Assembly: GCA_964535565.1 (NCBI GenBank)
Contig: CAZHUJ010000002.1
Coordinates: forward strand, 99,493-163,492
Direction: 5' to 3'
Length of the DNA stretch: 64,000 nt
Source: an uncultured Pseudohongiella sp.
GTDB lineage: Bacteria; Pseudomonadota; Gammaproteobacteria; Pseudomonadales; Pseudohongiellaceae
The notes under the pieces were generated by a model. That model saw only the letters and a program-made list of their open reading frames with translations, made no database searches and had not been told where the DNA came from. The position numbers were made by a program, and so were the translations under genes. Shown piece by piece: positions 19,813 to 32,258 of the stretch (position 1 is its first letter; each line of letters starts with the position of its first letter).

Positions 19813-21510
19813 GTGACTGATCTGCTCAGGGTCTGCCACTTCTATCATGCTTTGCCAAAACGCAACACCCACGTTATTGGCTTGATAAGTCTTCTTTGCG
19901 TTTTTTTGTTTGCTGCCTGTTCACCATCAGCGCCAGGCGGTGTGGGTGACAATCAACCTCCTGCAGATCCTGGAACACCGGTATACGGTGGTCACCTGCG
20001 TGTTGCCCTGGAAGGGGAGACCAACAACTGGCTCCCGGGCCGAGGTAACCATGTTGCACCTGCCGCGCTGACGGTAGCAATGGCACTGTTTGATCCACTG
20101 GTGCGCCTGGATCATGAAGGCCGTTTTCAACCCTACCTGGCGGAATCCCTGGTTCCCAACAAAACCTTTGACCAGTGGACCGTGACCCTGCGCCCCGGGG
20201 TGAAATTCCACGACGGCACAGCCCTTGATGCGCAAGCCATAAAATGGAATTTTGATAACCTGCATAAACGTCAGGGCTCGGTCACCTTTGGTTCCATCCG
20301 CGATATAGAACGGGTTGAGGTTGTGGACGAACTGCGCGTGGTTTATTACCTGAGCAAAGGCATTGTTCCATTCCCCGATATTCTGACGCGTGCCCCGGGC
20401 TGGCCGGTATCCCCCACGGCTGTGCAGCGCTACGGCGACGAGGCCGGGCTGTACCCGGTGGGTACAGGGCCTTTTCAGCTAGTGAGCTGGCGGCGTGATG
20501 ATCGCCTGGAGTTGCGTCGAAATGAAAACTACTGGCGCGAAGGGTTGCCCTATCTGGACGCCATTACCTTCCGTCCGTTGCCCGATGAAGATGCGCGTCT
20601 GGCCAGTCTGATTTCCGGAGACATCGATGTTATTCAGACGCTGCGCCAGCACATTGTGGCCCGTCTTCGCAGTATGTCCGGTATCCATCTTTATGAACAA
20701 ATCGGCAACAGTTCAGGTAGTGCAATTTTTAACGCCCAGCGTGCGCCGGTTGATGATGCGCGTGTGCGCCGGGCACTGGCCTATGCCCTGGATCAGGAAG
20801 CCTTGATTGAAGTGCTCGGCGGTCGCGGAATTTCACCGGTGCAGACCCAGTACTTCAACGAAACCAGTATCTGGTATTCGCCCAAGGCGGCTGCCGCCTG
20901 GCCTGCTCGTGATCAGGCTCAGGCCAGGGCGTTGCTGCAGGAGTACATAAACGACCCCCAACGTTCTGACGGACGTGCGCCAGGCTCTGCGGTGGCAATA
21001 GAGCTGCTGTGTCTGCCCGAACAAAGTCTGATTGATCTGGCACAGATGTATCAGGCGTTGTGGGTAGCAGTCGGTTTTGATGTGCGCCTGCGCCAGGTGG
21101 AGCAGGCCACCCAAATCCAGAGTGTGATCAGTGGCGACTACATGGTGACCTGCTGGCGCAGCAGCAACGAGCAGGATCCTTACATTATTTTCAGCAATGA
21201 CTTTGGTGATCCTGCTCTGCAACCGCTGAATTACACCAACTTTGCGCATCCGCTGATTAGCCAGAACGTTGAAGTGTTACAGCTGGTACCTGAGTTCGAA
21301 CAACGTTATGCCGCAGTAGAAAATATCCTGATGTTGCTGGCCGAGCAGGTGCCCAATACCTGGACCGGCTCTACTCCCTCGGCGGTGGCTGCCAATCCCA
21401 AAGTGCGCAATCTGCGCGACTGGACCTTTCCTGATGGCCGCCTGGGTGACGGCATGCCGGTTGCACAGGTGAGCTGGGCGCAGGTCTGGATCCGTAACGA
21501 GGAGGATTAA
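19813..21510 (+). CDS. ABC transporter substrate-binding lipoprotein, family 5 (peptide/nickel, DppA/OppA-like)
   Basis: Lipobox LFAAC, size and position upstream of DppBCDF-like genes. The true start may be TTG at 19852, giving (M)PKRNTHVIGLISLLCVFLFAAC. Confidence 0.85.
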   Translation: MTDLLRVCHFYHALPKRNTHVIGLISLLCVFLFAACSPSAPGGVGDNQPPADPGTPVYGGHLRVALEGETNNWLPGRGNHVAPAALTVAMALFDPLVRLDHEGRFQPYLAESLVPNKTFDQWTVTLRPGVKFHDGTALDAQAIKWNFDNLHKRQGSVTFGSIRDIERVEVVDELRVVYYLSKGIVPFPDILTRAPGWPVSPTAVQRYGDEAGLYPVGTGPFQLVSWRRDDRLELRRNENYWREGLPYLDAITFRPLPDEDARLASLISGDIDVIQTLRQHIVARLRSMSGIHLYEQIGNSSGSAIFNAQRAPVDDARVRRALAYALDQEALIEVLGGRGISPVQTQYFNETSIWYSPKAAAAWPARDQAQARALLQEYINDPQRSDGRAPGSAVAIELLCLPEQSLIDLAQMYQALWVAVGFDVRLRQVEQATQIQSVISGDYMVTCWRSSNEQDPYIIFSNDFGDPALQPLNYTNFAHPLISQNVEVLQLVPEFEQRYAAVENILMLLAEQVPNTWTGSTPSAVAANPKVRNLRDWTFPDGRLGDGMPVAQVSWAQVWIRNEED

Positions 21511-21515
21511 CCACA

Positions 21516-22463
21516 GTGAAACTGCTGCTTAAAAAGCTGCCCTGGTTGATTGGCACGCTGCTGGCGGTTTCCTTTTTTACTTTTATGCTGGTCAGTCTGC
21601 TGCCTGGAGATCCGGCGGTACTGATTCTGGGGGCGGGTGGGGTCTCACCCGAAGCCGTTGCCGCCCTGCGTGAAGAGCTGGGGCTGGACCGTCCTCTGCT
21701 GGTGCGATATCTCGACTGGCTCGGCAGTGCGCTGACCGGCGACCTGGGGCGGTCACCGATGACCGGGCAGGCGGTGATGGATGCCATCCTCGCGCGTCTG
21801 CCAGTAACGGTGCAGCTGGGGCTGATGGCAATTGTGATTGCTCTGGCGCTGGCCGTGCCGCTGGCAATGCTGTCAGCGTTTTACGCCGGTTCTCGCCTGG
21901 ATCGCACGATCAGTGGTGTCGGGTTTGCGCTGATGTCAGTGCCCGGTTTTATGATGGCCATTTTCCTGATCCTGATTTTTGCAGTAAATCTGGGTTGGTT
22001 TCCAGCCACTGGCTGGATTCCATTTTCAGTGTCACCTGGCGCTAACCTGCGCAGTGCGCTGTTGCCAGCGCTGTCACTGGCGATGATAGAACTCGCTTTG
22101 TATATGCGACTGCTGCGCACCGATCTGATAGCCACCTTGCAGCAGGACTTCATCACACTGGCGCGCGCCAAAGGGCTGCCAAGCTGGCGCATCATGACCC
22201 GCCATGCCTTAAAACCTTCATCGTTTTCATTGCTCACCGTTGTTGGATTGCAGCTGGGTGGAGTGATTAGCGGGGCTATTATTGTTGAGGAAATTTTTGC
22301 ACTGCCAGGTCTTGGCAGACTTTTGTATCAGTCGATTTTGCAGCGTGATCTGCTGATGGTGCAGGGCATTGTGCTGTTTATTGCTACCGCTTATGTGCTG
22401 GTAAATTTCCTGGTTGATCTTTGTTACTCACTGATTGACCCACGTGTCCGTTATTCGGATTGA
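21516..22463 (+). CDS. ABC transporter permease (DppB/OppB-like)
   Basis: Six hydrophobic segments, a BPD-type permease EAA-like region (LARAKGLPSWRIMTRHALKP) and the typical N-terminus LLKKLPWLIGTLLAVSFFTF. Confidence 0.9.
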   Translation: MKLLLKKLPWLIGTLLAVSFFTFMLVSLLPGDPAVLILGAGGVSPEAVAALREELGLDRPLLVRYLDWLGSALTGDLGRSPMTGQAVMDAILARLPVTVQLGLMAIVIALALAVPLAMLSAFYAGSRLDRTISGVGFALMSVPGFMMAIFLILIFAVNLGWFPATGWIPFSVSPGANLRSALLPALSLAMIELALYMRLLRTDLIATLQQDFITLARAKGLPSWRIMTRHALKPSSFSLLTVVGLQLGGVISGAIIVEEIFALPGLGRLLYQSILQRDLLMVQGIVLFIATAYVLVNFLVDLCYSLIDPRVRYSD

Positions 22464-22472
22464 GCCTGACTT

Positions 22473-23381
22473 ATGACTGTGCCTGCTGAAAAGCTGCAAG
22501 CCAAAGCACATCGCCGCATCGAAAGCCGGGTGCAAAACTATGCCCGCGCCGTGCAGCAGGTATTTGGTCGTGGTTTTGGTCCTGGATTCTGGTTGTCTGT
22601 GGGCTGGTTGCTGCTGGTGTTGTTCTGTGCGCTGTTTGCAAACTGGCTGCCAGTGCGTGACCCACTCGACCCTGTTATTGCCAATCGCCTGAATGGCCCG
22701 CTGACCACCAATATTCTGGGTGCTGACGGACTTGGTCGCGACATTCTTGCGCGTCTGGTGCATGGCGCCAGGGTGTCAGTTGTTATTGGTTTAACCGCAG
22801 TGTCCATCGGGATGGTGATCGGTGGCACGGTGGGTATTCTGGCCGGTTATTTTCGCGGCCATTTTGAGCGCGCAGTCATGGCGGTGCTGGACATTATTCT
22901 GGCCTTCCCCTGGCTGGTTCTGTTACTGGCATTGGTGACTTTTGTTGGCCAGAGCCTGAGCGCCATTTCCGTGGCAATAGGATTTTTGTGGATTCCGGCT
23001 TACGCCCGCGTTGCTCGCGCCAATACTCTGTCGGTTGTGCAGCGCGAATATGTACTGGCCGCGAAGGCCATGGGCGCAAGCACCACACGTATCCTGCTGC
23101 GCGAAGTCCTGCCCAATGTGATTCTGCCGGTTCTGGCCTATGGTCTGGTAGCAATGGGGCTGGTGATTATTGTGGAAAGTGCACTGGCCTTCCTTGGGCT
23201 CAGTGTAGAGGCGCCGCAACCCACCTGGGGCGGCATGATTGCTGAGGGCAAACGCCATCTGGCTACTGCAGTACATGTGGCACTGATGCCTTCATTGACG
23301 ATGTTCTTGACCGTGTTGTCGCTTAACTTTGTGGGGGACAGGCTGCGCAGTCATTTTGATGTCAAGGAGTCAAATCTGTGA
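22473..23381 (+). CDS. ABC transporter permease (DppC/OppC-like)
   Basis: ILGADGLGRDILARLVHG motif typical of DppC/OppC, and a permease EAA region (AAKAMGASTTRILLREVLPN). Confidence 0.9.
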   Translation: MTVPAEKLQAKAHRRIESRVQNYARAVQQVFGRGFGPGFWLSVGWLLLVLFCALFANWLPVRDPLDPVIANRLNGPLTTNILGADGLGRDILARLVHGARVSVVIGLTAVSIGMVIGGTVGILAGYFRGHFERAVMAVLDIILAFPWLVLLLALVTFVGQSLSAISVAIGFLWIPAYARVARANTLSVVQREYVLAAKAMGASTTRILLREVLPNVILPVLAYGLVAMGLVIIVESALAFLGLSVEAPQPTWGGMIAEGKRHLATAVHVALMPSLTMFLTVLSLNFVGDRLRSHFDVKESNL

Positions 23382-24382
23382 GCACTGCGATGCTTGAAGT
23401 TCAGAATCTGACCGTGCGCCTGAAAAGCCAGGCTGGTCTTGTGCATGCGGTGGAGAATGTTTCGTTTACGCTTGAGGCCGGCAAGACCTTGGGCATCGTG
23501 GGTGAATCAGGGTCTGGCAAAAGTGTCACCGCCAGAGCATTGATGGGATTGTTGCCTCGCCTGGGCACTGCCGAAAAAAAAGGCGTAGTGTTGTTGGACG
23601 GGGAGAACATCATCGATTGGTCCGACAAAGTGATGCGCGCCTTGCGTGGACCCAAAATGGCGATGGTATTTCAGGACCCAATGACCGCGCTGAACCCTGT
23701 GCTCAAACTGGGGGTACAACTGGCAGAACCTCTGCAGCTGCATTTGAACATGACTCGGCAACAGGCGCGCCAGCGCTGCATTGAGCTGCTGAGGGTTGTA
23801 GGTATCCCGGCGCCAGAACAGCGCATCGACCAATATCCACATCAGCTGTCCGGCGGCATGAGGCAGAGAGTTGTGATCGCAATTGCACTGGCCTGCAATC
23901 CTCAGTTACTGATTGCGGATGAACCTACAACTGCGCTGGATGTGACGGTACAAAAACAGATTCTGGATCTGTTGTCGTCGCTGCAGCAACAACGGCAGAT
24001 GGCGGTGCTGCTGATCAGCCATGACCTGGGAGTTGTTGGCAGTCGCGCGGATCACATTGCGGTTATGTACGCCGGCCGTATTGTTGAGCTGGCGCCGGCC
24101 AGAATCCTGTTTGAATCGATGTTGCATCCCTATACCGAGGCGCTGCTCAACTCCATCCCGCGCTTGAATGATCCGGCCCATACCCGACTTGCAGCAATTC
24201 CAGGGCGACCGCCACAGCTGATTAACCCGCCTGCAGCCTGTGCGTTTGCGCCGCGTTGTCCAAATGCGCAGCAAAAATGTCGGCGCGAGCAGCCGCCGAT
24301 GATCCCCGCGCGTGAGGCGGGTCATAGTTATGCCTGTTTTTTCCCGGTCGATCGCACGCAGGGAGGCCATGTTCATGGCTGA
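23378..24382 (+). CDS. ABC transporter ATP-binding protein (DppD/OppD-like)
   Basis: Walker A GESGSGKS, signature LSGGMRQR, Walker [13 protein letters not shown] and a C-terminal Cys-rich oligopeptide-type extension. Confidence 0.9.
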
Positions 24383-25346
24383 AGGCCGCGAGATAGTGCT
24401 CAGTGTGCAGCATCTGAGTGTTAGTTTTAATACCGACAAAGGTGTAGTGCAGGCTGTGTCTGATGTCAGTTTTGATGTGGCGCGCGGTGAAACCCTGGGG
24501 TTGGTGGGGGAGTCTGGTTGCGGGAAGTCCACTATCGGGCGCGCAATCATGCAGCTGCCGCCGCCTACAGGGGGCAGCGTGGTATTCAAGGACCAGGATT
24601 TGACAACATTGTCAGGTGAGGCACTGCGTCAGACGCGTACCGGTTTACAAATGATTTTTCAGGATCCGGTGTCCTCGTTAAATCCTCGTCGCAAGGTGCG
24701 CGATATTATTGCTGAGGGTTTGCATATCTGGAAACGACCCGATGCTGAGGCTCGTGTGCGTGAGGTGATGGATGCGGTGGGTCTGGATCCCGATGCAGCG
24801 GCAGACCGTCGCCCGCACCAGTTTTCCGGTGGGCAGTGCCAGCGCATCTGTATTGCGCGCTCGCTGGCGCTGGATCCAGCCGTGCTGATCTGTGATGAGC
24901 CGGTGTCAGCGCTGGACGTGTCTGTGCAGGCCCAGATTCTCAATTTGCTGGAAGATATGAAACAGCGTTACCAGCTGACGATGATTTTTGTGGCCCATAA
25001 TCTGGCCGTCGTCAAAAACGTCAGTGATCGTGTGGCTGTTATGTATCTGGGAAAACTTTGCGAGATAGGTGCCGTTGAGCGTATTTACTCGCATCCTGCC
25101 CATCCTTATACCCGTGCCTTGCTGGCTTCAATTCCTGATATTGAAAATGCCTACACTGGCAACAGCGAAGTGATGTTGCCGGGCGAGTTGCCATCTCCGG
25201 TGAATCCGCCTTCAGGCTGCCGCTTCCGTACCCGTTGCCCATCTGCCACAGATCGTTGTGCCAGCGAGGAACCTTTGATGCGGGCAGTGACTGACAGCGC
25301 CGGTGTTGATCATTTTGTTGCCTGTCACTACCCGCGGCTGGACTGA
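24375..25346 (+). CDS. ABC transporter ATP-binding protein (DppF/OppF-like)
   Basis: Walker A GESGCGKST, signature FSGGQCQR, Walker B LICDEPVSALD. I prefer the ATG at 24375 (GGGAGG 9 nt upstream) over the ORF-track start at 24312. Confidence 0.9.
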   Translation: MAEGREIVLSVQHLSVSFNTDKGVVQAVSDVSFDVARGETLGLVGESGCGKSTIGRAIMQLPPPTGGSVVFKDQDLTTLSGEALRQTRTGLQMIFQDPVSSLNPRRKVRDIIAEGLHIWKRPDAEARVREVMDAVGLDPDAAADRRPHQFSGGQCQRICIARSLALDPAVLICDEPVSALDVSVQAQILNLLEDMKQRYQLTMIFVAHNLAVVKNVSDRVAVMYLGKLCEIGAVERIYSHPAHPYTRALLASIPDIENAYTGNSEVMLPGELPSPVNPPSGCRFRTRCPSATDRCASEEPLMRAVTDSAGVDHFVACHYPRLD

Positions 25347-25369: not shown

Positions 25370-25873
25370 TCAGCGGGCAGGCGAAACCGGCCGGAAACTT
25401 TCAGGATTGATCAGGCGGTAATCGGGCACCACAATGTGTTCAATTTCTTCCACGACGCGAATGGTCGATGGCTGTTTTGCATCCGCTCCCGCTGCAAACA
25501 CAAACTGTCCCGACATCATCTTGTTGACCCGATCCACGGCACCCCAGTCCACGGTGTACCAGTCTGAAGCCGGAAGTTCCGGCAGCGACCAGATAAAAAC
25601 ACGGTCTGGCGTTGGGTCGTAGCGGAAGTTGATGTTCACCACTTTTTCATCCGCAGTTTTAACCACCAGTTTCAGCAGTCTGACGTGATCGGTAAAACGT
25701 AGCAGCAAATTGTCTGGAGCAGTGGGCAATACCTCGTCGTGATCAGGCATGTGTTCAACCTGTACGTCTCCGGTGTAACGGTAGGTATGCGACGAGTGCT
25801 GGGCGTAGGCGGAAGAACTGCAAGCCCACAACAACACCAAAATCGCTGTCAGCACGTTGTATTTATTGTTCAT
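25370..25873 (-). CDS. Periplasmic CopC-domain-like protein (tentative)
   Basis: The internal start MNNKYNVLTAILVLLWACSSSAYA gives a signal peptide. The pattern APDNLLLRFTDHV...YTVDWGAVD...MSGQFVFAAG resembles the CopC/YobA beta-sandwich. It is divergent, and the mature N-terminus is not the canonical His. Confidence 0.45.
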   Translation of the reverse strand: MNNKYNVLTAILVLLWACSSSAYAQHSSHTYRYTGDVQVEHMPDHDEVLPTAPDNLLLRFTDHVRLLKLVVKTADEKVVNINFRYDPTPDRVFIWSLPELPASDWYTVDWGAVDRVNKMMSGQFVFAAGADAKQPSTIRVVEEIEHIVVPDYRLINPESFRPVSPAR

Positions 25874-26092
25874 GTCAGGCCGGGTCCCTGGGCGTTTTAC
25901 ATGACTCCATTTATAACATGGGTCCATTATTTCAGCAGGAATAAGGCTGACGAATTTTGAACTGAGACAGCTGTTTTTGAAGAATTCGTCAGTGTTTTAA
26001 ATAAATCAGCAAGACGCTGTTGCTGGATCGTGTTCCAATGGCTTCGCTGCATAGTAGTTCCAGAACAGAAACAATAACGAAGGAGGTGTCCC

Positions 26093-27658
26093 GTGAGGAT
26101 ACTGCAATCCCCTATGCGCTCCACCACCCGCAAGGGTGTACAGAGGGTGTCTGCTCCGATTTGGGCAGCCCGTCTTCTTGCTGCCATGGCAATGACGTTA
26201 CCACTGGGTGTTTCTGCCCAGAGCAGTGGTTCAGACGTCACGTTCCATAAAGACATTGAACCTATCCTTCAGCGTGCATGTCAGCACTGCCATCGTCCCA
26301 ACGGGGTCGCTCCAATGTCCCTGGTCTCATACGACGATGTAGTCCCTTACGCAGGTTTGGTCGAATATCGTACCCATCTGCGTGATCGTGCAGGCGCGAT
26401 GCCGCCGTGGTATGCCGAAAAGGATATTGGTATCCAGTCCTACAAACAGGACCCGTCACTGACTGATCTGGAGCTGGCAAAAATTTCTGCCTGGGCGCGC
26501 GGTGGTGTGCCCAAGGGAAATCCGGCTGATGCTCCGCAACCTCTGGTATTTGATGACCGTGGTGTATGGACCGCGGGCGAGCCGGATATGGTGATCCGCA
26601 CCGAAGATATTTTTGTGGAAGGCGGTGCACCGGATTGGTGGGGAGATATTCCCAGCATTCCTACCGGTCTGACGCAGGATCGCTATGTAAAATCGGTCGA
26701 GATTCGTGAGGTTAACGACCGTGACATGAGTGCTGCCGGCGGTACCGTCGGTGGACGTAACATTGTTCACCATATGATCTGGAGTACCCAGGTTTTTAAC
26801 GAAGACGGAAGCTCGGATGGTATTCAGGTGCCTTGGCCGGTACACGAAATTGCCCGTAACCCGGATATTTTTGATGAAGACTCCGGTCGCCTGCTGCGTG
26901 CCAACTCCTACCTGGTGTCCAACTCCGTGCATTTGCACTCCACCGGAGTGGATACCACCGGACACCTGGAAATCGGTTTCCGCTTCCACCCGGAAGGTTA
27001 CAAACCCAAGTATCCGCCGTCATTTATCGGTCTTGGTAACGGTGTGGATATCTCCATTGCCGGTAACCAGGACAAGCAGGAATTGCATGCTTATGCCGTG
27101 CTGGATCAACCCACCAAGATTGTAACCTTCGAGCCACACTTGCACGCCCCTGGCGAGCGTATGTGTCTGGAAGCGATCTGGGGTTATACCGTCGAAACGC
27201 TGTCCTGCGTGGGTTACGACCACAACTGGGTACGCGGATACACCTTTGAGGCAGACTCTGCGCCGCTGCTGCCAAAAGGCACTGTGCTGCATATTGTGGG
27301 CTACATGAACAACACCGATACCAACCCGAACGTGCCGGATTCGCGTAACTGGCAAGGTTCAGGTAACCGTTCGGTCACCAATATGTTTATCGACCTCGGC
27401 ATGCGGGTCACCATGACTGACGACCAGTTCCTGGACGAGATGACCCAGCGTCGCAAGGATCTGAATCTCGGACCCAACGATCACGTGATCGGATGTCCGC
27501 TGTGTCTGGCACCTCTGGTTGCGCCTATCGAACCTACTGAGGAAGAGAAAAAGGATATGTCAGAGGCGATGATTCGTTACCTGACGCTTACGGATGAGGA
27601 GAAGCAGCGTCTTGGCCTCAGTAACAATGTGATGCTGAGCCAGACGGAGGGTAACTGA
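26093..27658 (+). CDS. Exported fusion protein: N-terminal c-type heme (CXXCH) domain plus a copper type II ascorbate-dependent monooxygenase (PHM/DBH)-like domain
   Basis: GTG start 6 nt after AGGAGG, followed by a signal peptide. Motifs in PHM order: FHKDIEPILQRACQHCH (CXXCH at nt 26279-26293), VHHM (H226, H227), VHLH, PHLH (H349, H351) and TNMF (M431). Confidence 0.6.
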   Translation: MRILQSPMRSTTRKGVQRVSAPIWAARLLAAMAMTLPLGVSAQSSGSDVTFHKDIEPILQRACQHCHRPNGVAPMSLVSYDDVVPYAGLVEYRTHLRDRAGAMPPWYAEKDIGIQSYKQDPSLTDLELAKISAWARGGVPKGNPADAPQPLVFDDRGVWTAGEPDMVIRTEDIFVEGGAPDWWGDIPSIPTGLTQDRYVKSVEIREVNDRDMSAAGGTVGGRNIVHHMIWSTQVFNEDGSSDGIQVPWPVHEIARNPDIFDEDSGRLLRANSYLVSNSVHLHSTGVDTTGHLEIGFRFHPEGYKPKYPPSFIGLGNGVDISIAGNQDKQELHAYAVLDQPTKIVTFEPHLHAPGERMCLEAIWGYTVETLSCVGYDHNWVRGYTFEADSAPLLPKGTVLHIVGYMNNTDTNPNVPDSRNWQGSGNRSVTNMFIDLGMRVTMTDDQFLDEMTQRRKDLNLGPNDHVIGCPLCLAPLVAPIEPTEEEKKDMSEAMIRYLTLTDEEKQRLGLSNNVMLSQTEGN

Positions 27659-28617
27659 TGTTTGCAGGAGCTTTTAGTAGACGTTTAAACGTGGCCGCAG
27701 CGGCGGTACTGGGTTTGGGCCTGCTCTGCAGCGGAATGTCAGTGCAGGCGCAGACCTACAGCAGTGGTCAGCACATTGAGCCCGCGTACGAAGGCTGGCG
27801 TCAGAATGAAGATGGTTCCTACAACTTCATTTTTGGTTACCACAATGAAAACTGGCAGGAAGAACTCGATATCCCGGTGGGAGAAAATAATTTTTTCTCT
27901 CCTGGCGATGCCGATCGTGGCCAGCCCACACACTTTCTGCCGCGTCGTAACCGCTTCACCTTTGAAGTCACGGTCCCAGCCGATTGGGGCGAAAAAGAGT
28001 TGGCATGGACGATAACGGCTCACGGTGTCACACGCACCGCGTACGCTACTCTGGCCAAGGACTATGTGGTGGATAACGTGGTCATTGCCTCTGAAACCGG
28101 ATCGTTGGGGGCCGGTACCAGTACGCCTGAATCGCGTGCCAACACAGCGCCAGTGATCAACTTGCTGGGTGATAACGTGCGTAGTGTGCGTGTGGGTGAA
28201 CCGCTGCTGTTAAGAGCTGAAGTCAGGGACGACGGTCTGCCGAAACCGGGCAGTGCTGCAGCTGCGGCTGAAGGCCGCGAAGTGACGCGAACAGCTCCGG
28301 GTGAAGTGCGCCGATTTATGCGTGCACCCACACGGGTCACAGTAGGTAAAACCAACGGTTTGTTCCTGTCATGGAACGTTTACCGTGGTGACGCCAACGC
28401 GGAATTTTATCCGCCGCAGGTCAAACCATGGGAAGACACCCGTGCCAGCGCCAACTCACCTTGGGGTGCTTACTGGACACCTCCGCCCATTCCGGAAGAC
28501 GGAATCTACGAAACCCAGGTAACGTTTGATAGACCTGGCACGTTTATATTGTGGGCGCGAGCCGATGATGGGGGACTTTATGGTGACTATTACGTCACTG
28601 TAAATGTGACTGAGTAA
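27658..28617 (+). CDS. Hypothetical exported protein (319 aa), translationally coupled to the upstream gene
   Basis: Signal peptide AAAAVLGLGLLCSGMSVQA-QT. The ATG overlaps the upstream TGA by 1 nt. No family recognised. Confidence 0.6.
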   Translation: MFAGAFSRRLNVAAAAVLGLGLLCSGMSVQAQTYSSGQHIEPAYEGWRQNEDGSYNFIFGYHNENWQEELDIPVGENNFFSPGDADRGQPTHFLPRRNRFTFEVTVPADWGEKELAWTITAHGVTRTAYATLAKDYVVDNVVIASETGSLGAGTSTPESRANTAPVINLLGDNVRSVRVGEPLLLRAEVRDDGLPKPGSAAAAAEGREVTRTAPGEVRRFMRAPTRVTVGKTNGLFLSWNVYRGDANAEFYPPQVKPWEDTRASANSPWGAYWTPPPIPEDGIYETQVTFDRPGTFILWARADDGGLYGDYYVTVNVTE

Positions 28618-28626
28618 ATCTGAACT

Positions 28627-28657
28627 CACTGTGCTGCAGTCAATGTGCAGCACAGTG
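28627..28657 (+). other. Perfect 12 bp stem hairpin just after the stop of the 27658-28617 gene
   Basis: CACTGTGCTGCA-gtcaatg-TGCAGCACAGTG. Confidence 0.5.
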
Positions 28658-28702
28658 ACAGAAGATGTGGCAGCTGTGTAACTGATCCCAACACAGCATT
28701 CA

Positions 28703-28749
28703 GCCCTGGCTTGATCTCGGAGTCGTGCGCCGAGGCCAGGGCTTTTTTT
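28703..28749 (+). terminator. Rho-independent terminator
   Basis: GCCCTGGC..CTCGG-loop-CCGAG.GCCAGGGC followed by TTTTTTT. Confidence 0.75.
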
Positions 28750-28803
28750 ATTGCTGTAAATTGTCTATCTTGCAGTCAACAACAACTACAGCAGAATTAT
28801 TAG

Positions 28804-29907
28804 ATGACCTGGATTCATTCCGCCACCAGCTTTCTGGCCATTTCGCAGCTGCTGTTTCTTGCAAGTCTTTACCTGGTCTATTTCCCCGGCCGCCGTCTGG
28901 CGCGGCTGATCACACTTTTTTGTTTATGTGTCACGGCCTATATTCTTTCACGCCAGCCTGCGCTGCGCGGTCTGCCGGTGGCTGAGTTGCTGGGTTTGAT
29001 GGCGATTGCTGCGCCCGCTGTATTGTGGGTGATTGGCCGTTATCTGTTTGAAGATGAGCGTCGGGTGCATCCGCTGGCCTGGATTCTGATCATTTCTTAT
29101 ATGAGCCTGCGTTTTGCCGGCCAGCTTTTGTATGACGTGGGACCTGCGCGTACATCGCTACCCTTTATCGTGCTGTTTTTTGTGCCTCAGCTGATCATGC
29201 TGGGGTTGGCCTGTCACGTGGTGTACATGGCCTGTCGTGGGCACGAATCCGATCTGGTCGAATTAAGACGTCAATTGCGGGTTCCGTTTGCGATTGGAAT
29301 GGGCAGCATTGTGGGTCTTATCATTGGCGCCGGGTTTTTCTGGGACGGCAGCTGGCAAACCGACAGCCTGTATTTTTCGCTGATATTTCTGCTGATCCTG
29401 TTTATTAATCTGGGCATGTTCCGGATTCATCAGCATGCTCCCGATTTGATCCACAGTGTCGGCGAGCAGCCCGGTCCGTTGCATATGGCAAATGTTCCCA
29501 TGGCCTCTGATACCGCGGGTGTCACTGATGCGGAAATGTCAACGGCGCAGGTGTCCCGTCATGACCAGATCATGATAGACCGGGTGCTCAAGGCGATGAA
29601 GCAGGGACGTCTGTATGCAGAGTCCGGTCTGACTATCGGAGATCTGGCGGCACGGGTCTCAGTGCAAGAGTACCGCCTGCGTAAACTGATCAACCAGTCC
29701 TTGCATTACCGCAACTTCAACCAGTTTTTAAACCGATACCGCATCGAGGAGGCCGCACGCCGCCTGCTGGATCCGGAAGAGCAGCATATTCCGATCTCCA
29801 GTATTGCGCTGGATGTGGGTTATGCATCGTTGTCTTCGTTTAATAAAGCGTTTAAGGAAATCCATGGTGTAACACCGTCGGTTTACCGTTCGGGACAGGC
29901 GGAGTAA
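28804..29907 (+). CDS. Membrane-anchored AraC/XylS family transcriptional regulator
   Basis: The N-terminal ~190 aa has about six hydrophobic helices. The C-terminal AraC HTH reads IALDVGYASLSSFNKAFKEIHGVTPSVYR. Confidence 0.8.
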   Translation: MTWIHSATSFLAISQLLFLASLYLVYFPGRRLARLITLFCLCVTAYILSRQPALRGLPVAELLGLMAIAAPAVLWVIGRYLFEDERRVHPLAWILIISYMSLRFAGQLLYDVGPARTSLPFIVLFFVPQLIMLGLACHVVYMACRGHESDLVELRRQLRVPFAIGMGSIVGLIIGAGFFWDGSWQTDSLYFSLIFLLILFINLGMFRIHQHAPDLIHSVGEQPGPLHMANVPMASDTAGVTDAEMSTAQVSRHDQIMIDRVLKAMKQGRLYAESGLTIGDLAARVSVQEYRLRKLINQSLHYRNFNQFLNRYRIEEAARRLLDPEEQHIPISSIALDVGYASLSSFNKAFKEIHGVTPSVYRSGQAE

Positions 29908-29974: not shown

Positions 29975-31006
29975 GTGGACACCATGAACGACACTACTGT
30001 TAGCAGCAATGCCCTGTTGATGGACGATACCCCGGCCATCAAATCCTTTCGCCGCCTGGCCATTATTACTATCTGTGCGGTGTATTTCCTGATTCTGGTT
30101 GGTGCTACCGTACGTGCCTCAGGTGCAGGTATGGGTTGCCCGGACTGGCCAACCTGTTTTGGCAGTCTGATCCCACCCGTGAGCGAATCGCAGCTGCCGC
30201 CCAATTATCAGGAAATTTATGCAGATCGCGGCTACGCCGAAACCCGCTTTAATGTGGTAAAAACCTGGACCGAATATGTGAACCGTCTGGTGGGTGTCAC
30301 CATCGGTCTGTTGATTATGGCGACGGCCTGGCGCTCGTTGACGGTACGTCGCTACGACCGCCGCATCATGATTGCTTCACTGGCAGCGCTGGCGATGGTG
30401 ATTTATCAGGGTTGGCTCGGCTCGCAAGTGGTAGCATCCAACCTGCAGCCGGGCATGATTACGGTACATATGTTGATGGCGCTGGCCATTGTAGCCACGC
30501 TGTTGTATGCACTGGCACGCGCCCGTCGCCATGTGATGGCGCAGACCTCAGTGGCGGGCATAGATCCGCGCTTTCGCAAGTGGTTGTACATCGTAATGGC
30601 GCTGACGCTGGTGCAGATCACCATGGGTATACAGATCCGTGAGCTGATGGACTACCTGGCACACACAGTGGGTGCGGAGCGTGAAGTGTGGATTGAGGCA
30701 CAGAACTGGGTGTTCTACGTCCACCGTTCGTTCTCGTCGGTAGTGCTGTTTTCCAATGTCTGGCTGGTATGGATGCTGTGGCAGTCGCTGGGTATAAAAC
30801 ACAGCCTGACGCGGCTTGCAGCCGGGGTTCTGGCCGTGATCGCAGTTGCAATTTTGTCCGGTGCAACACTGGGACATCTGGGTATGCCGTGGTTTGTGCA
30901 GCCCACACACTTGCTGTGTGCCTCGCTGATATTCGGGCTGCAGTTCCTGCTGTGGATGGACTACCGGCATGCGACGGGTGGTTCTGCTGCGCCGGCCGCT
31001 GCCTAA
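29975..31006 (+). CDS. ctaA: Heme A synthase (COX15/CtaA family)
   Basis: GAGMGCPDWPTCFG motif, eight hydrophobic segments and conserved His-containing helices. The start may be the ATG at 29984. Confidence 0.85.
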   Translation: MDTMNDTTVSSNALLMDDTPAIKSFRRLAIITICAVYFLILVGATVRASGAGMGCPDWPTCFGSLIPPVSESQLPPNYQEIYADRGYAETRFNVVKTWTEYVNRLVGVTIGLLIMATAWRSLTVRRYDRRIMIASLAALAMVIYQGWLGSQVVASNLQPGMITVHMLMALAIVATLLYALARARRHVMAQTSVAGIDPRFRKWLYIVMALTLVQITMGIQIRELMDYLAHTVGAEREVWIEAQNWVFYVHRSFSSVVLFSNVWLVWMLWQSLGIKHSLTRLAAGVLAVIAVAILSGATLGHLGMPWFVQPTHLLCASLIFGLQFLLWMDYRHATGGSAAPAAA

Positions 31007-31265: not shown

Positions 31266-32081
31266 TCAGTCTTTGACGAATTTCAGGGTCATGCGGTCAC
31301 TCTCACCAATCTCCATCAGCCTTGGTCGGTCAGCATCACTGACGCCACGCAATGTCGGCGGCAGGTTCCATACACCACCTGGATGATTTTTGGGGTCGCG
31401 TGGATTGGCGTTAATCTCTGAACTGCCGGCAAAGCTGAAGCCGTTGGCGGTCATCAGGTCGATCAGCGTTTTTTCGTGGATATAACCATTGCCCGGAACC
31501 GCAGCCTGATCCGCGGGCCAGCGGTGATCAACAATGCCTACAACACCGCCCGATTTCAGCGCGGCGTGCCAGGCCTTGACGATGTTATCGGCACCCATAG
31601 CCAGCCAGTTGTGGGCATTACGGAAGTCCAGGATTACGTCAACGCTGCCGGGTTCGGCGATGCGGGATTGCGCTTGTGTCAGTTGTTCTGACAGAACAAT
31701 GTCGCCGTACAGGGATGGGTTGCTGTTGACCAGAGCCATGAAGCTGTCATTGGAACCTTTCATCCAGCCTTGCAGCGGCGTGTCACTGCGGTCATACAGC
31801 GCGGCGATCAGAGTGCCATTTTCCTTCAGGTAGGGAGCCAGGATTTCGGTGTACCAGCCACCACCGGGCCAGGTCTCCACAACTACATCGTCCGCTTCTA
31901 CCCCAAAAAAGCTCAGTGTTTCATAAGGGTGACGGTAAACATCCCGCGCTGAATTGGCTTCAGAACGATGAGGGCTGTTAATTGCCGTTCGCAGTGCCGC
32001 GTTCTCCTGCGCTGCCAGTGGGCTGGCCATCAGCAGGCCCGCGATCAGCGTCAGAACAGAGGTTTTCACAAAAGGTTTCAT
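31266..32081 (-). CDS. Exported class I SAM-dependent methyltransferase-like protein (COG4798 type)
   Basis: The internal start MKPFVKTSVLTLIAGLLMASPLAA at 32081 follows GGAG. A methyltransferase-fold region GGWYTEILAPYL is present. The upstream 38 codons of the ORF-track call look non-coding. Confidence 0.65.
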   Translation of the reverse strand: MKPFVKTSVLTLIAGLLMASPLAAQENAALRTAINSPHRSEANSARDVYRHPYETLSFFGVEADDVVVETWPGGGWYTEILAPYLKENGTLIAALYDRSDTPLQGWMKGSNDSFMALVNSNPSLYGDIVLSEQLTQAQSRIAEPGSVDVILDFRNAHNWLAMGADNIVKAWHAALKSGGVVGIVDHRWPADQAAVPGNGYIHEKTLIDLMTANGFSFAGSSEINANPRDPKNHPGGVWNLPPTLRGVSDADRPRLMEIGESDRMTLKFVKD

Positions 32082-32258
32082 AAAGGACTCCGCCTGTTTT
32101 TTGTTGTTGGTATCAGATATTTCACGCTGCAAACAACCTGCGTCTGCGGCCGAGAATACCGGTTTGTCGAACAACAGACCAGTGAGCTGCGGCATTTCTC
32201 ACAAGCGCCACTCACGGTATGATGCGGTGAAATTCATGCGCTTATACAGGGACCCATC

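Follow-up and report, generated by a model that had tools for sequence, protein, structure and literature searches.

A candidate periplasmic heme-copper oxidative locus in Pseudohongiella: a cytochrome-fused PHM/DBH-like protein, its secreted partner and a membrane-bound AraC regulator

Copper monooxygenases of the PHM/DBH type are, to our knowledge, almost exclusively known from animals, in which their ascorbate-dependent reactions yield noradrenaline and amidated peptide hormones; the substrate of PHM is a C-terminal glycine, while DBH acts on small amines. A bacterial periplasmic system of analogous outline is MbnH-MbnP-MbnT, comprising a di-heme peroxidase, its substrate or partner and a TonB-dependent receptor, which is encoded in methanobactin loci and related ones for copper uptake (PMC3621798, PMC11951088). 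Here we describe a locus from an uncultured Pseudohongiella sp. (Gammaproteobacteria) whose central gene is predicted to encode a bacterial PHM/DBH-like protein with its own cytochrome. The stretch analysed, called the window throughout, comprises 64,000 nucleotides of contig CAZHUJ010000002.1 (assembly GCA_964535565.1), and the genes in question are referred to as A (a CopC-fold protein), B (the heme-copper enzyme), C (its partner), D (a membrane AraC regulator) and E (ctaA); their coordinates are given in Table 1. An earlier note on this stretch had proposed a self-contained, regulated extracytoplasmic oxidation system; all of the sequence features it claimed (the open reading frames, an inverted repeat, the TGATG overlap and two hairpins) are present where it had placed them, Pfam bears out its CopC-like, AraC and ctaA genes, and its overall interpretation is supported in part. 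On balance we consider it probable that the locus specifies a regulated periplasmic oxygen-activating heme-copper enzyme system.

The product of gene B is, on its predicted structure, a secreted protein in which a mono-heme cytochrome c is joined to a two-copper core of PHM/DBH type. With PHM (1phm, 1sdw, 6ala), DBH (4zel) and tyramine beta-monooxygenase it shares two consecutive beta-sandwich domains, and enzymes of this kind are its top structural matches: a Foldseek search with the AlphaFold model of B, which was built on an alignment of 29 members, recovered a tandem beta-sandwich core of PHM type, with human DBH (4zel) as the best hit (E 4e-10) and about 30 rat PHM entries (1sdw and 6ala among them) matched at a probability of 1.0 over about 300 columns, the target-normalised TM-score (TMt) to PHM/DBH being 0.55-0.62. 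The extracytoplasmic location is also shared, as is the order of the ligands, the first domain carrying HH...H and the second HxH...M; they are spaced by 53/69/80 residues in B and, similarly, by 64/70/70 in PHM. Across 29 aligned homologues at 30-83% identity (alignment A1) only a small number of columns are invariant or almost invariant, among them CxxCH, M103-P-P, H226-H227, H280, H349/H351 and M431; the pattern HH/H/HxH/M, together with CxxCH and the methionine of MPP, constitutes the most conserved residues of B. Conservation, order and spacing point to ligands for both the electron-transfer copper (CuH) and the catalytic copper (CuM), and in the model H226-H227 stands at the start of a strand in the first beta-sandwich. 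B likewise has the features of a class I c-type cytochrome, namely CQHCH at aa 63-67, M103-P-P, whose Met (M103) probably serves as axial ligand to the heme, and a signal peptide at aa 1-42. In the closer B subfamily (alignment A2) a GCPLC motif just past the core is invariant; its two Cys may form a disulfide, or the motif may be a site for Cu(I) or redox chemistry. Distant members do not have it. Two residues before its HxH, PHM has an Arg which we take to bind the peptide carboxylate, and at this position B has an invariant Glu (E347). B differs from PHM and DBH in being bacterial and periplasmic, in its sequence (about 10% identity, and no curated model reached), in having a dedicated partner, C, and a dedicated regulator, and in its fused N-terminal c-type cytochrome where the animal enzymes rely on ascorbate.

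About 4,900 homologues of B are found in a large protein collection, annotated “hypothetical” or “c-type cytochrome,” and none of them carries a precomputed Pfam domain; by cluster, 9,724 representatives are matched at E<=1e-3, the weaker of which may cover the cytochrome domain alone, and 336 at E<=1e-30. The closest relatives come from Pseudohongiella metagenome-assembled genomes (89% identity for B), several genomes of relatives contain at least two B-C pairs, and homologues are carried by the cultured relatives Pseudohongiella acticola and P. nitratireducens. The distant members of the family touch the Pfam copper-monooxygenase models: among the 29 homologues Cu2_monoox_C was matched in six (best 1.7e-5) and Cu2_monooxygen in four (best 0.0071). 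For the cytochrome part, Cytochrome_CBB3 scored 17.4 bits on B, under its cutoff of 27, and the family profile aligns with the heme domains of 4rlr (a mono-heme cytochrome) and of hydrazine synthase alpha; B gave no CCP_MauG match and has one CxxCH only. Searches of the PDB with the single sequences of B and C returned nothing useful. Taken together, the alignment, the model, the Foldseek matches and the Pfam matches of homologues uphold the earlier proposal of a cytochrome-copper monooxygenase, in the form of a secreted heme c protein with a PHM/DBH-like copper monooxygenase fold.

Some relatives of B have a different architecture. P0374 and P0369, and weakly L103 (3715-5763, minus strand), bear AhpC/TSA-redoxin or thioredoxin-like domains beside or before the core, and the B relative of L110 (3770-5734, minus strand) is counted with this redoxin/thioredoxin-like set; the fused relatives score 15.9-22.9 bits against Cu2_monoox_C, just below the 23-bit cutoff. 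P0374 has two PHM-like cores along with a cytochrome c domain and a second match to a haem-binding domain, and P0360 has EF-hand repeats. Since redoxin domains accompany or precede the same core in these relatives, the comparison suggests that the N-terminal module of the B family is an exchangeable domain for electron delivery or the handling of peroxide.

The conservation of the neighbourhood was followed in 84 loci, 80 of them genome loci around relatives of B and four obtained by exact look-up; loci are cited by number (L001 and so on). C was the most constant neighbour, being present in 75 of the 78 loci with enough downstream DNA and lying directly downstream of B in 66. Neither Pfam nor NCBIfam provides a family for C; 36 members were scanned singly, and weak YtkA-like matches appeared in 10 of them (best E 0.032). 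The structural model (mean predicted local distance difference test, pLDDT, 76.7) matches generic immunoglobulin (Ig)-like structures only. These results support the view that C is a secreted partner, closely linked to B and belonging to no known family. MbnP was found neither among the best fold matches nor in the family scans, and C as a CopC-like protein was rejected on a negative profile-profile comparison (probability 8%). There are about 5,600 homologues of C, all unnamed, and the protein is unusually conserved, with 54-77% identity to the window copy in most of the non-redundant locus set. C has no Cys, and its family has no conserved copper-type ligands. In addition to the loop at aa 140-162 (Table 1), segments at aa 222-234 and aa 258-269 are nearly invariant with pLDDT below 50; segments of this kind usually become ordered on binding a partner or ligand, and in the model they would be candidate interaction or modification sites. 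Five loci (L022, L024, L029, L050 and L061) have tandem C duplicates, about 60% identical to each other's relatives, after a single B.

Gene D encodes an AraC-type regulator anchored in the membrane. In its C-terminal part Pfam detects the double helix-turn-helix (HTH) of the AraC/XylS family (HTH_18 4.3e-18, HTH_AraC 2.3e-7), while NCBIfam gives a weak match to RhrA; no Pfam domain is found in the N-terminal half, which is made up of membrane helices. The earlier note had counted about six of these and suggested sensing of a signal in membrane or periplasm. That D is a membrane AraC regulator is sustained, with the helix count by hydropathy being seven; by the positive-inside rule the N-terminus lies outside and the HTH inside, and the short periplasmic loops argue against a periplasmic ligand-binding domain. 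The family alignment has invariant D84, P128-Q129, D150 and R155-R156 and nearly invariant Q15, R103 and H138, and these conserved polar residues sit in or beside the membrane helices. With the class II activators of the AraC/XylS family (AraC, XylS, MelR, RhaS) D shares the C-terminal double HTH, but seven membrane helices replace their N-terminal ligand-binding and dimerisation domain. ToxR, CadC and TcpP resemble D in having a DNA-binding domain tethered to the inner membrane and in the link to envelope functions; proteins of the ToxR type, however, have one membrane helix and a winged-helix domain, neither of which is seen in D. The Bacteroides hybrid two-component systems with AraC output are comparable in these respects and also in their link to TonB-dependent uptake loci, but have large periplasmic sensors and kinase and receiver domains, which D does not. 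A word-limited search found 82 clusters homologous to D, one of them from the cultured P. acticola. In full-text searches of the literature neither membrane AraC regulators of this kind nor bacterial PHM-like enzymes with a fused heme domain were the subject of any paper found, and the D family is an undescribed one of polytopic-membrane AraC proteins.

The protein encoded by gene A resembles CopC, PcoC, YobA and the CopC domain of YcnJ in its fold, as judged by sequence, and in being secreted. Pfam CopC matches it at 7.9e-7 (30.4 bits against a cutoff of 23.3), and a profile of 23 family members searched against the PDB found CopC-type chains only (YcnJ 9c14, PcoC 1ix2 and P. fluorescens CopC 6tpb; E 0.003-0.08). 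The canonical Cu(II) ligands of CopC are the N-terminal amine, two His and one Asp (PMC8689200). In A the DxH ligands are missing, the window copy having V-N-K and the family R, K or N at the position of the His; the canonical N-terminal His is replaced by T34/G35, 9-10 residues inside the mature chain, and among 55 members of the A family there is no conserved Met or His cluster corresponding to the Met-rich Cu(I) site of the C1-1 subclass. A further differs from CopC/PcoC proteins in its predicted mature N-terminus, Gln-His, which is kept in two of three subfamilies, and in a C-terminal extension of ~40 aa past the CopC domain (FAFGPxAxPPS...PDYRL), kept in all three. The CopC fold anticipated for A is thus confirmed, and the copper binding expected with it is not. 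Translation of A probably starts at ATG 25873 (MNNKYNV..., a signal peptide) rather than at 25927, because the upstream extension is not conserved in homologues and the predicted -10 element overlaps 25926-25931.

Recurrence of the gene neighbourhood in related genomes had been named in the earlier note as a test, and the locus passes it: the five-gene order recurs in relatives, and A and D are found with B and C in other arrangements and clades. An A-type gene lies within 6 kb in 39 of the 84 loci and D lies nearby in 15, each in four orientation classes; in a tree of 90 B proteins D is distributed over at least six clades, including an outgroup of 27% identity, and A over at least four. We regard this repeated re-assortment across arrangements and clades of the B tree as strong evidence that A and D are linked to B-C functionally and not by inherited gene order. 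Three contexts of B are the commonest of several conserved ones (arrowheads give gene direction). Type I, CopC< B> C> memAraC> CtaA>, is the order of the window, L001, L005, L006, L007, L014 and L085-L087, and is seen in L003 up to the contig end; type II reads SURF1> B> C> (C2>) CopC< acyl-CoA thioesterase> CopC> nitroreductase< beta-lactamase-like<; and type III reads pnp> B> C> alpha/beta-hydrolase> icmF<. The ctaA gene is near B in six of the 84 loci, all in the clade of the window, and the links to ctaA and SURF1, each confined to one clade, would be most simply explained by inherited gene order. In the type I loci L001 (5228-6740) and L014 a secreted alpha/beta-hydrolase gene, missing from the window, follows the CopC-fold gene on the same strand. 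Type II loci (L022-L071, about 25 loci; for example L033 8551-10711) have two divergent CopC-fold paralogues flanking the acyl-CoA thioesterase gene, one of which keeps the Gln-His N-terminus and the other not, and upstream two DUF6644-like membrane proteins and a secreted 277-aa protein of no assigned family.

A reverse search starting from D, from which 80 metagenome loci were taken, leads back to the same genes. Close homologues of D reproduce the five-gene order (L085-L087); in L102, L107, L111, L116 and L117 D is divergent from C< B<, with or without a TonB-dependent receptor (TBDR) between them; and other loci have C with no B within 6 kb, in the order C> TBDR> TBDR> D> (L088-L090) or C> D> (L095, L096 and L108, and L094, where the pair lies beside divergent receptors). 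The receptors of the D loci were confirmed by Pfam, and as to their substrate class all NCBIfam matches are far below cutoffs. By these neighbourhoods the bond of C with D and the receptors appears to be no looser than its bond with B, and the system does not look clearly self-contained, as had been proposed: in relatives C and D accompany TonB-dependent outer-membrane receptors, sometimes without B. Related loci also have secreted alpha/beta-hydrolases, beta-lactamase-like hydrolases and M20 peptidases, and receptors, hydrolases and peptidases together fit the processing of an imported organic compound, without naming the compound. Distant homologues of D (27-35% identity) are found in the order TBDR> D> cytochrome c> MauG/CCP-like> NosD-like-cytochrome c>, which makes up a second periplasmic redox regulon under this family of regulators, distinct from the first and with a di-heme peroxidase and a beta-helix-cytochrome c protein.

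The divergent promoter region of A and B contains a perfect inverted repeat with 10-bp arms, 26 nt apart and 36 nt from start to start. With good confidence, if short of certainty, the comparison of loci identifies this repeat as the operator of D, with the box AAT[TC]CGTCAG. In the 64-kb window AATYCGTCAG occurs at these two sites only, against 0.22 expected from shuffles, and about 0.008 chance arm pairs are estimated for the 219-bp spacer. A box with 0-2 mismatches to the right arm, AATTCGTCAG, stands upstream of B in every type I locus, and L005, L008, L085 and L086 retain the left arm too, with 1-2 mismatches and an unchanged offset of 36 nt; where one arm of L086 has changed, the other shows the matching change. 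Over all 84 loci a forward box lies upstream of B in 9 of the 15 with D and in 7 of the 69 without it (Fisher p = 9e-5, for loci that are phylogenetically non-independent), and in the loci containing D 30 of 39 matches to AA[ATC][TC]CGTCAG are intergenic, adjoining D or its neighbours. Where D is 27-35% identical to the window copy, two direct repeats of the box 21 bp apart precede the operons of cytochrome c, MauG-like and NosD-like proteins, the proximal one ending 20 nt before TATAGT, and TonB-receptor genes are preceded by one exact box that lies about as far from TATAGT. Direct repeats of 21-bp period that end about 20 nt before the -10 element are the classic geometry of class II AraC/XylS activators; this geometry is shared by the boxes of the distant D loci, whereas in the window the boxes are inverted and would serve divergent promoters. 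We assign the inverted repeat to D because the geometry of the box co-varies with the presence of the regulator and not with the target genes. The inverted repeat pointed out in the earlier note is thereby supported as a conserved regulatory element, by the arms and 36-nt offset in relatives and by the boxes in distant D loci. An RNA hairpin or terminator was rejected as explanation of the repeat, since the arms share a consensus across loci and their spacing shifts to 21-bp direct repeats elsewhere; an arm consensus that stays constant while the spacing changes fits binding by a protein. The -35 element of the predicted A promoter falls within the left arm. On the other side every type I locus has a conserved (A/G)AGACG element (window 26010-26016 and equivalents) some 20 nt past the right box in the downstream direction, the position which in distant D loci is that of the TATAGT -10 box; this element may be an atypical -10 or mark where the transcript begins. 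GGAGGTGTC at the Shine-Dalgarno sequence of B is kept in relatives. Within the window neither D nor ctaA nor the methyltransferase-like gene was found to have a box ahead of it; because a terminator separates C and D and no box precedes D, D appears to be separately expressed, with no sign in the sequence of regulating itself. As read from its gene neighbourhoods, the D family would regulate modules of periplasmic heme/copper redox proteins that are coupled to uptake through TonB-dependent receptors.

Table 1. Coordinates of the genes, motifs and regulatory features of the locus (window numbering unless a locus number is given).
Feature	Position	Strand	Remarks
Gene A	25370..25873	-	CopC-fold protein; 167 aa from ATG 25873; secreted; open reading frame 25370-25927, open up to 25927
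Putative sigma-70-like promoter of A	25926..25953	-	TCGTCA, 16-nt spacer, TG-extended AATAAT; consensus scan
Inverted repeat, left arm CTGACGAATT (minus strand AATTCGTCAG)	25947..25956	-	faces A; candidate D box
Inverted repeat, right arm AATTCGTCAG	25983..25992	+	faces B; candidate D box
Shine-Dalgarno sequence of B, AAGGAGG	26080..26086	+	6 nt before GTG start
Gene B	26093..27658	+	521 aa; GTG start; model with mean pLDDT 80.3
B signal peptide	aa 1-42		
B mono-heme cytochrome c domain	about aa 47-140		
B PHM/DBH-like two-domain copper core	about aa 160-470		acidic low-confidence tail after
Heme c attachment motif CQHCH (C63, C66, H67)	26279..26293	+	nearly invariant, 29 homologues
M103-P104-P105	26399..26407	+	invariant column in A1
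H226-H227	26768..26773	+	putative counterpart of PHM CuH His-His pair; invariant in A1
H280	26930..26932	+	putative counterpart of third CuH ligand; invariant in A1
H349-L-H351	27137..27145	+	putative counterpart of CuM HxH pair; nearly invariant in A1, invariant in A2
M431	27383..27385	+	putative counterpart of CuM Met ligand; nearly invariant in A1, invariant in A2
GCPLC (C468, C471)	27491..27505	+	just past PHM-like core; invariant in A2, absent from distant members
TGATG, overlap of B stop and C start by one base	27656..27660	+	translational coupling
Gene C	27658..28617	+	319 aa; secreted; two beta-sandwich domains, about aa 35-135 and 165-319
C loop NVVIASETGSLGAGTSTPESRAN (aa 140-162)	28075..28143	+	nearly invariant; aa 140-160 with pLDDT below 50
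Perfect 13-bp hairpin	28626..28658	+	just past C stop; without U-tract
Intrinsic terminator	28702..28750	+	GC-rich interrupted stem (28702-28743), then T7
Gene D	28804..29907	+	367 aa; polytopic membrane AraC regulator
D membrane helices, seven predicted	28828-29421 (aa 9-206)	+	hydropathy
D AraC/XylS double HTH	29644-29892 (aa 281-363)	+	after linker; Pfam
Gene E, ctaA (heme A synthase)	29975..31006	+	Pfam COX15-CtaA PF02628 1.6e-50, profile positions 2-320 of 322
Secreted protein of cluster c23, methyltransferase-like	31266..32195	-	weak, possible module association
Box sites in distant D loci	L121 1295-1325; L140 1146-1176; L130 7062-7090; L123 1300; L126 713; L138 3089		

Beyond what was computed (folds, ligand conservation, export signals, translational coupling, linkage and the co-occurrence of box and D), we infer a mechanism that takes in copper and heme occupancy, the electron path, hydroxylation, contact between B and C, and the DNA binding and signal of D. 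B would be exported by Sec and receive one heme c, and periplasmic respiratory donors of the cytochrome pool would reduce this fused heme, which would thus stand in for the ascorbate of the animal enzymes. Electrons would pass from the heme to CuH (H226, H227, H280) and on to CuM (H349, H351, M431), where O2 would be activated and a C-H bond of the substrate hydroxylated. The three nearly invariant segments of C probably dock on B or hold and present the substrate, and A would be a CopC-fold accessory that does not use the canonical copper site. D may sense a membrane-accessible or transported signal, and would most likely bind both AAT[TC]CGTCAG boxes, one for each of the divergent promoters, and activate A and B.

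Several points weigh against this reading. None of the evidence indicates a substrate for B. B itself matches no Pfam copper-monooxygenase model (PF01082, PF03712), and the profile of its family, when compared with PDB sequences, aligned in the heme domain only and failed to reach PHM; because curated models and PDB profile searches do not get that far, the relationship to PHM is one of predicted fold and motif pattern. The mapping of the CuH and CuM ligands follows order, spacing and conservation, not superposed coordinates, and all six are best called putative. C would not simply be a subunit of B, given the several loci in which it accompanies D and TonB receptors while B is missing, and A is without the canonical CopC copper ligands, so that copper binding by it cannot be assumed. 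In three metatranscriptome runs there are contigs over all of A to E, at a depth that is low throughout, and some span the B/C junction and the C-D spacer; with coverage equally low for all genes and DNA carry-over possible, they lend no usable support to expression or to an operon.

Among the other explanations, acquisition of copper or the maturation of cuproproteins is a possible but unlikely one: B, C and A would capture, oxidise or hand over copper from TonB-dependent receptors, one purpose of which could be the assembly of cytochrome oxidase, and D would sense metal status. The recurrent CopC-fold neighbour and the receptors that recur beside C and D would suit such a role, as would the oxidase-assembly genes flanking the B-C pair in two clades (ctaA in that of the window, SURF1 in 25 loci), the frequency of AraC regulators in metallophore systems together with the weak RhrA match of D, and the control by distant D homologues of MauG/CCP-like and NosD-like periplasmic proteins. 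However, A lacks the Cu(II) and Cu(I) ligands of CopC, C offers neither Cys nor conserved Met-type ligands, no model specific for copper or siderophores is matched above its cutoff by the receptors, ctaA and SURF1 are each linked to the pair in a single clade, and it is the full PHM-type ligand set that is most conserved in B, which suits catalysis better than the trafficking of metal. We rate as improbable a somewhat different role for C, by which it is the substrate of B: B would modify C in an invariant unstructured segment, and modified C would capture a ligand or metal with TonB-dependent receptors, in the manner of MbnH and MbnP, all under a seven-helix AraC class reading AAT[TC]CGTCAG. 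Here the likeness to MbnH-MbnP-MbnT is one of analogy only, a periplasmic heme oxidative enzyme and a beta-rich partner near TonB-dependent receptors; there is no homology, MbnH being of the MauG/CCP di-heme type and B mono-heme and PHM-like, and neither MbnH nor MbnP was recognised in this locus. The three nearly invariant C segments predicted to be disordered agree with this proposal, as do the very high conservation of C for a periplasmic Ig-like protein, its occurrence beside receptors and D without adjacent B, and the tandem C paralogues after single B genes noted above, but PHM and DBH act on other kinds of substrate, as described, and in the many genomes with several B-C pairs B may sit elsewhere when it is not beside C.

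That B uses its heme and copper for electron transfer or for oxidase or peroxide chemistry (for example, oxidising a substrate while O2 is reduced, or acting as a peroxygenase or peroxidase), and not for C-H hydroxylation, seems less likely still. The relatives of B fused to AhpC/TSA-redoxin domains (P0374, P0369, L103) would be in keeping with it, and so would the di-heme peroxidase-like proteins in distant D regulons; against this, we know of HH/H and HxH/M in a two-domain PHM fold only from hydroxylating monooxygenases. Lastly, the four genes could be neighbours through inherited order alone, with A and D unrelated to B-C. D does lie in its own transcription unit behind a terminator, and A or D is missing from many B-C loci, but this explanation is strongly disfavoured by the way in which A and D each turn up next to B-C in at least four arrangements and in several B-tree clades, by the reverse search from D, which recovers B and C, and by the box associated with D in the A/B promoter region. 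A regulated, oxygen-activating heme-copper enzyme system in the periplasm is the reading that we retain.

Two hairpins follow C. The region past its stop codon has a folding energy of -63.3 kcal/mol (z = -5.6 vs shuffles), and the second hairpin is, from its sequence, an intrinsic terminator expected to end the B-C transcription unit. The ctaA gene, which had been counted as part of the arrangement, was rejected as a member of the module on account of its clade-specific occurrence, and its adjacency is probably a matter of inherited gene order. Beyond it lies the gene for a secreted protein of cluster c23, which may be a further accessory component: members of c23 directly follow C in L027, L043, L057, L102 and L107 and are near ctaA in the window, L005, L006 and L086/87. 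The cluster was built by single linkage, and homology of the window copy is not secure; Pfam and NCBIfam gave no match to it, while the member in L027 matched S-adenosylmethionine (SAM) methyltransferase models (FxLD-system and isoaspartyl types) below cutoff. On the other flank a Dpp-like peptide ATP-binding cassette (ABC) importer (window 19813-25346), with a family 5 solute-binding protein, two permeases and two ATPases, ends 24 nt from the stop codon of A; transporter genes likewise precede A in L005, L008 and L085-L087, the closest relatives only. Sequence matching the window is present at full word share in wastewater runs and at 0.82-0.92 in further wastewater and landfill runs.

Should the favoured reading hold, the B family would be a very large bacterial branch of PHM/DBH-like proteins, often in several copies per Pseudohongiella genome, with a cytochrome c as built-in reductant. 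B would then offer a simple, ascorbate-free system in which to study long-range Cu-to-Cu electron transfer, and the existence of its family hints that Gammaproteobacteria abundant in the sea, in fresh water and in wastewater carry out oxidative chemistry that has gone unrecognised. The candidate operator of D is usable for the prediction of regulons, including TonB receptors and MauG-like and NosD-like redox proteins. If the modification of C by B were true, one system would comprise both a new pathway to a protein-derived cofactor and a new class of regulator. The cultured species P. acticola and P. nitratireducens make direct tests of these proposals possible.

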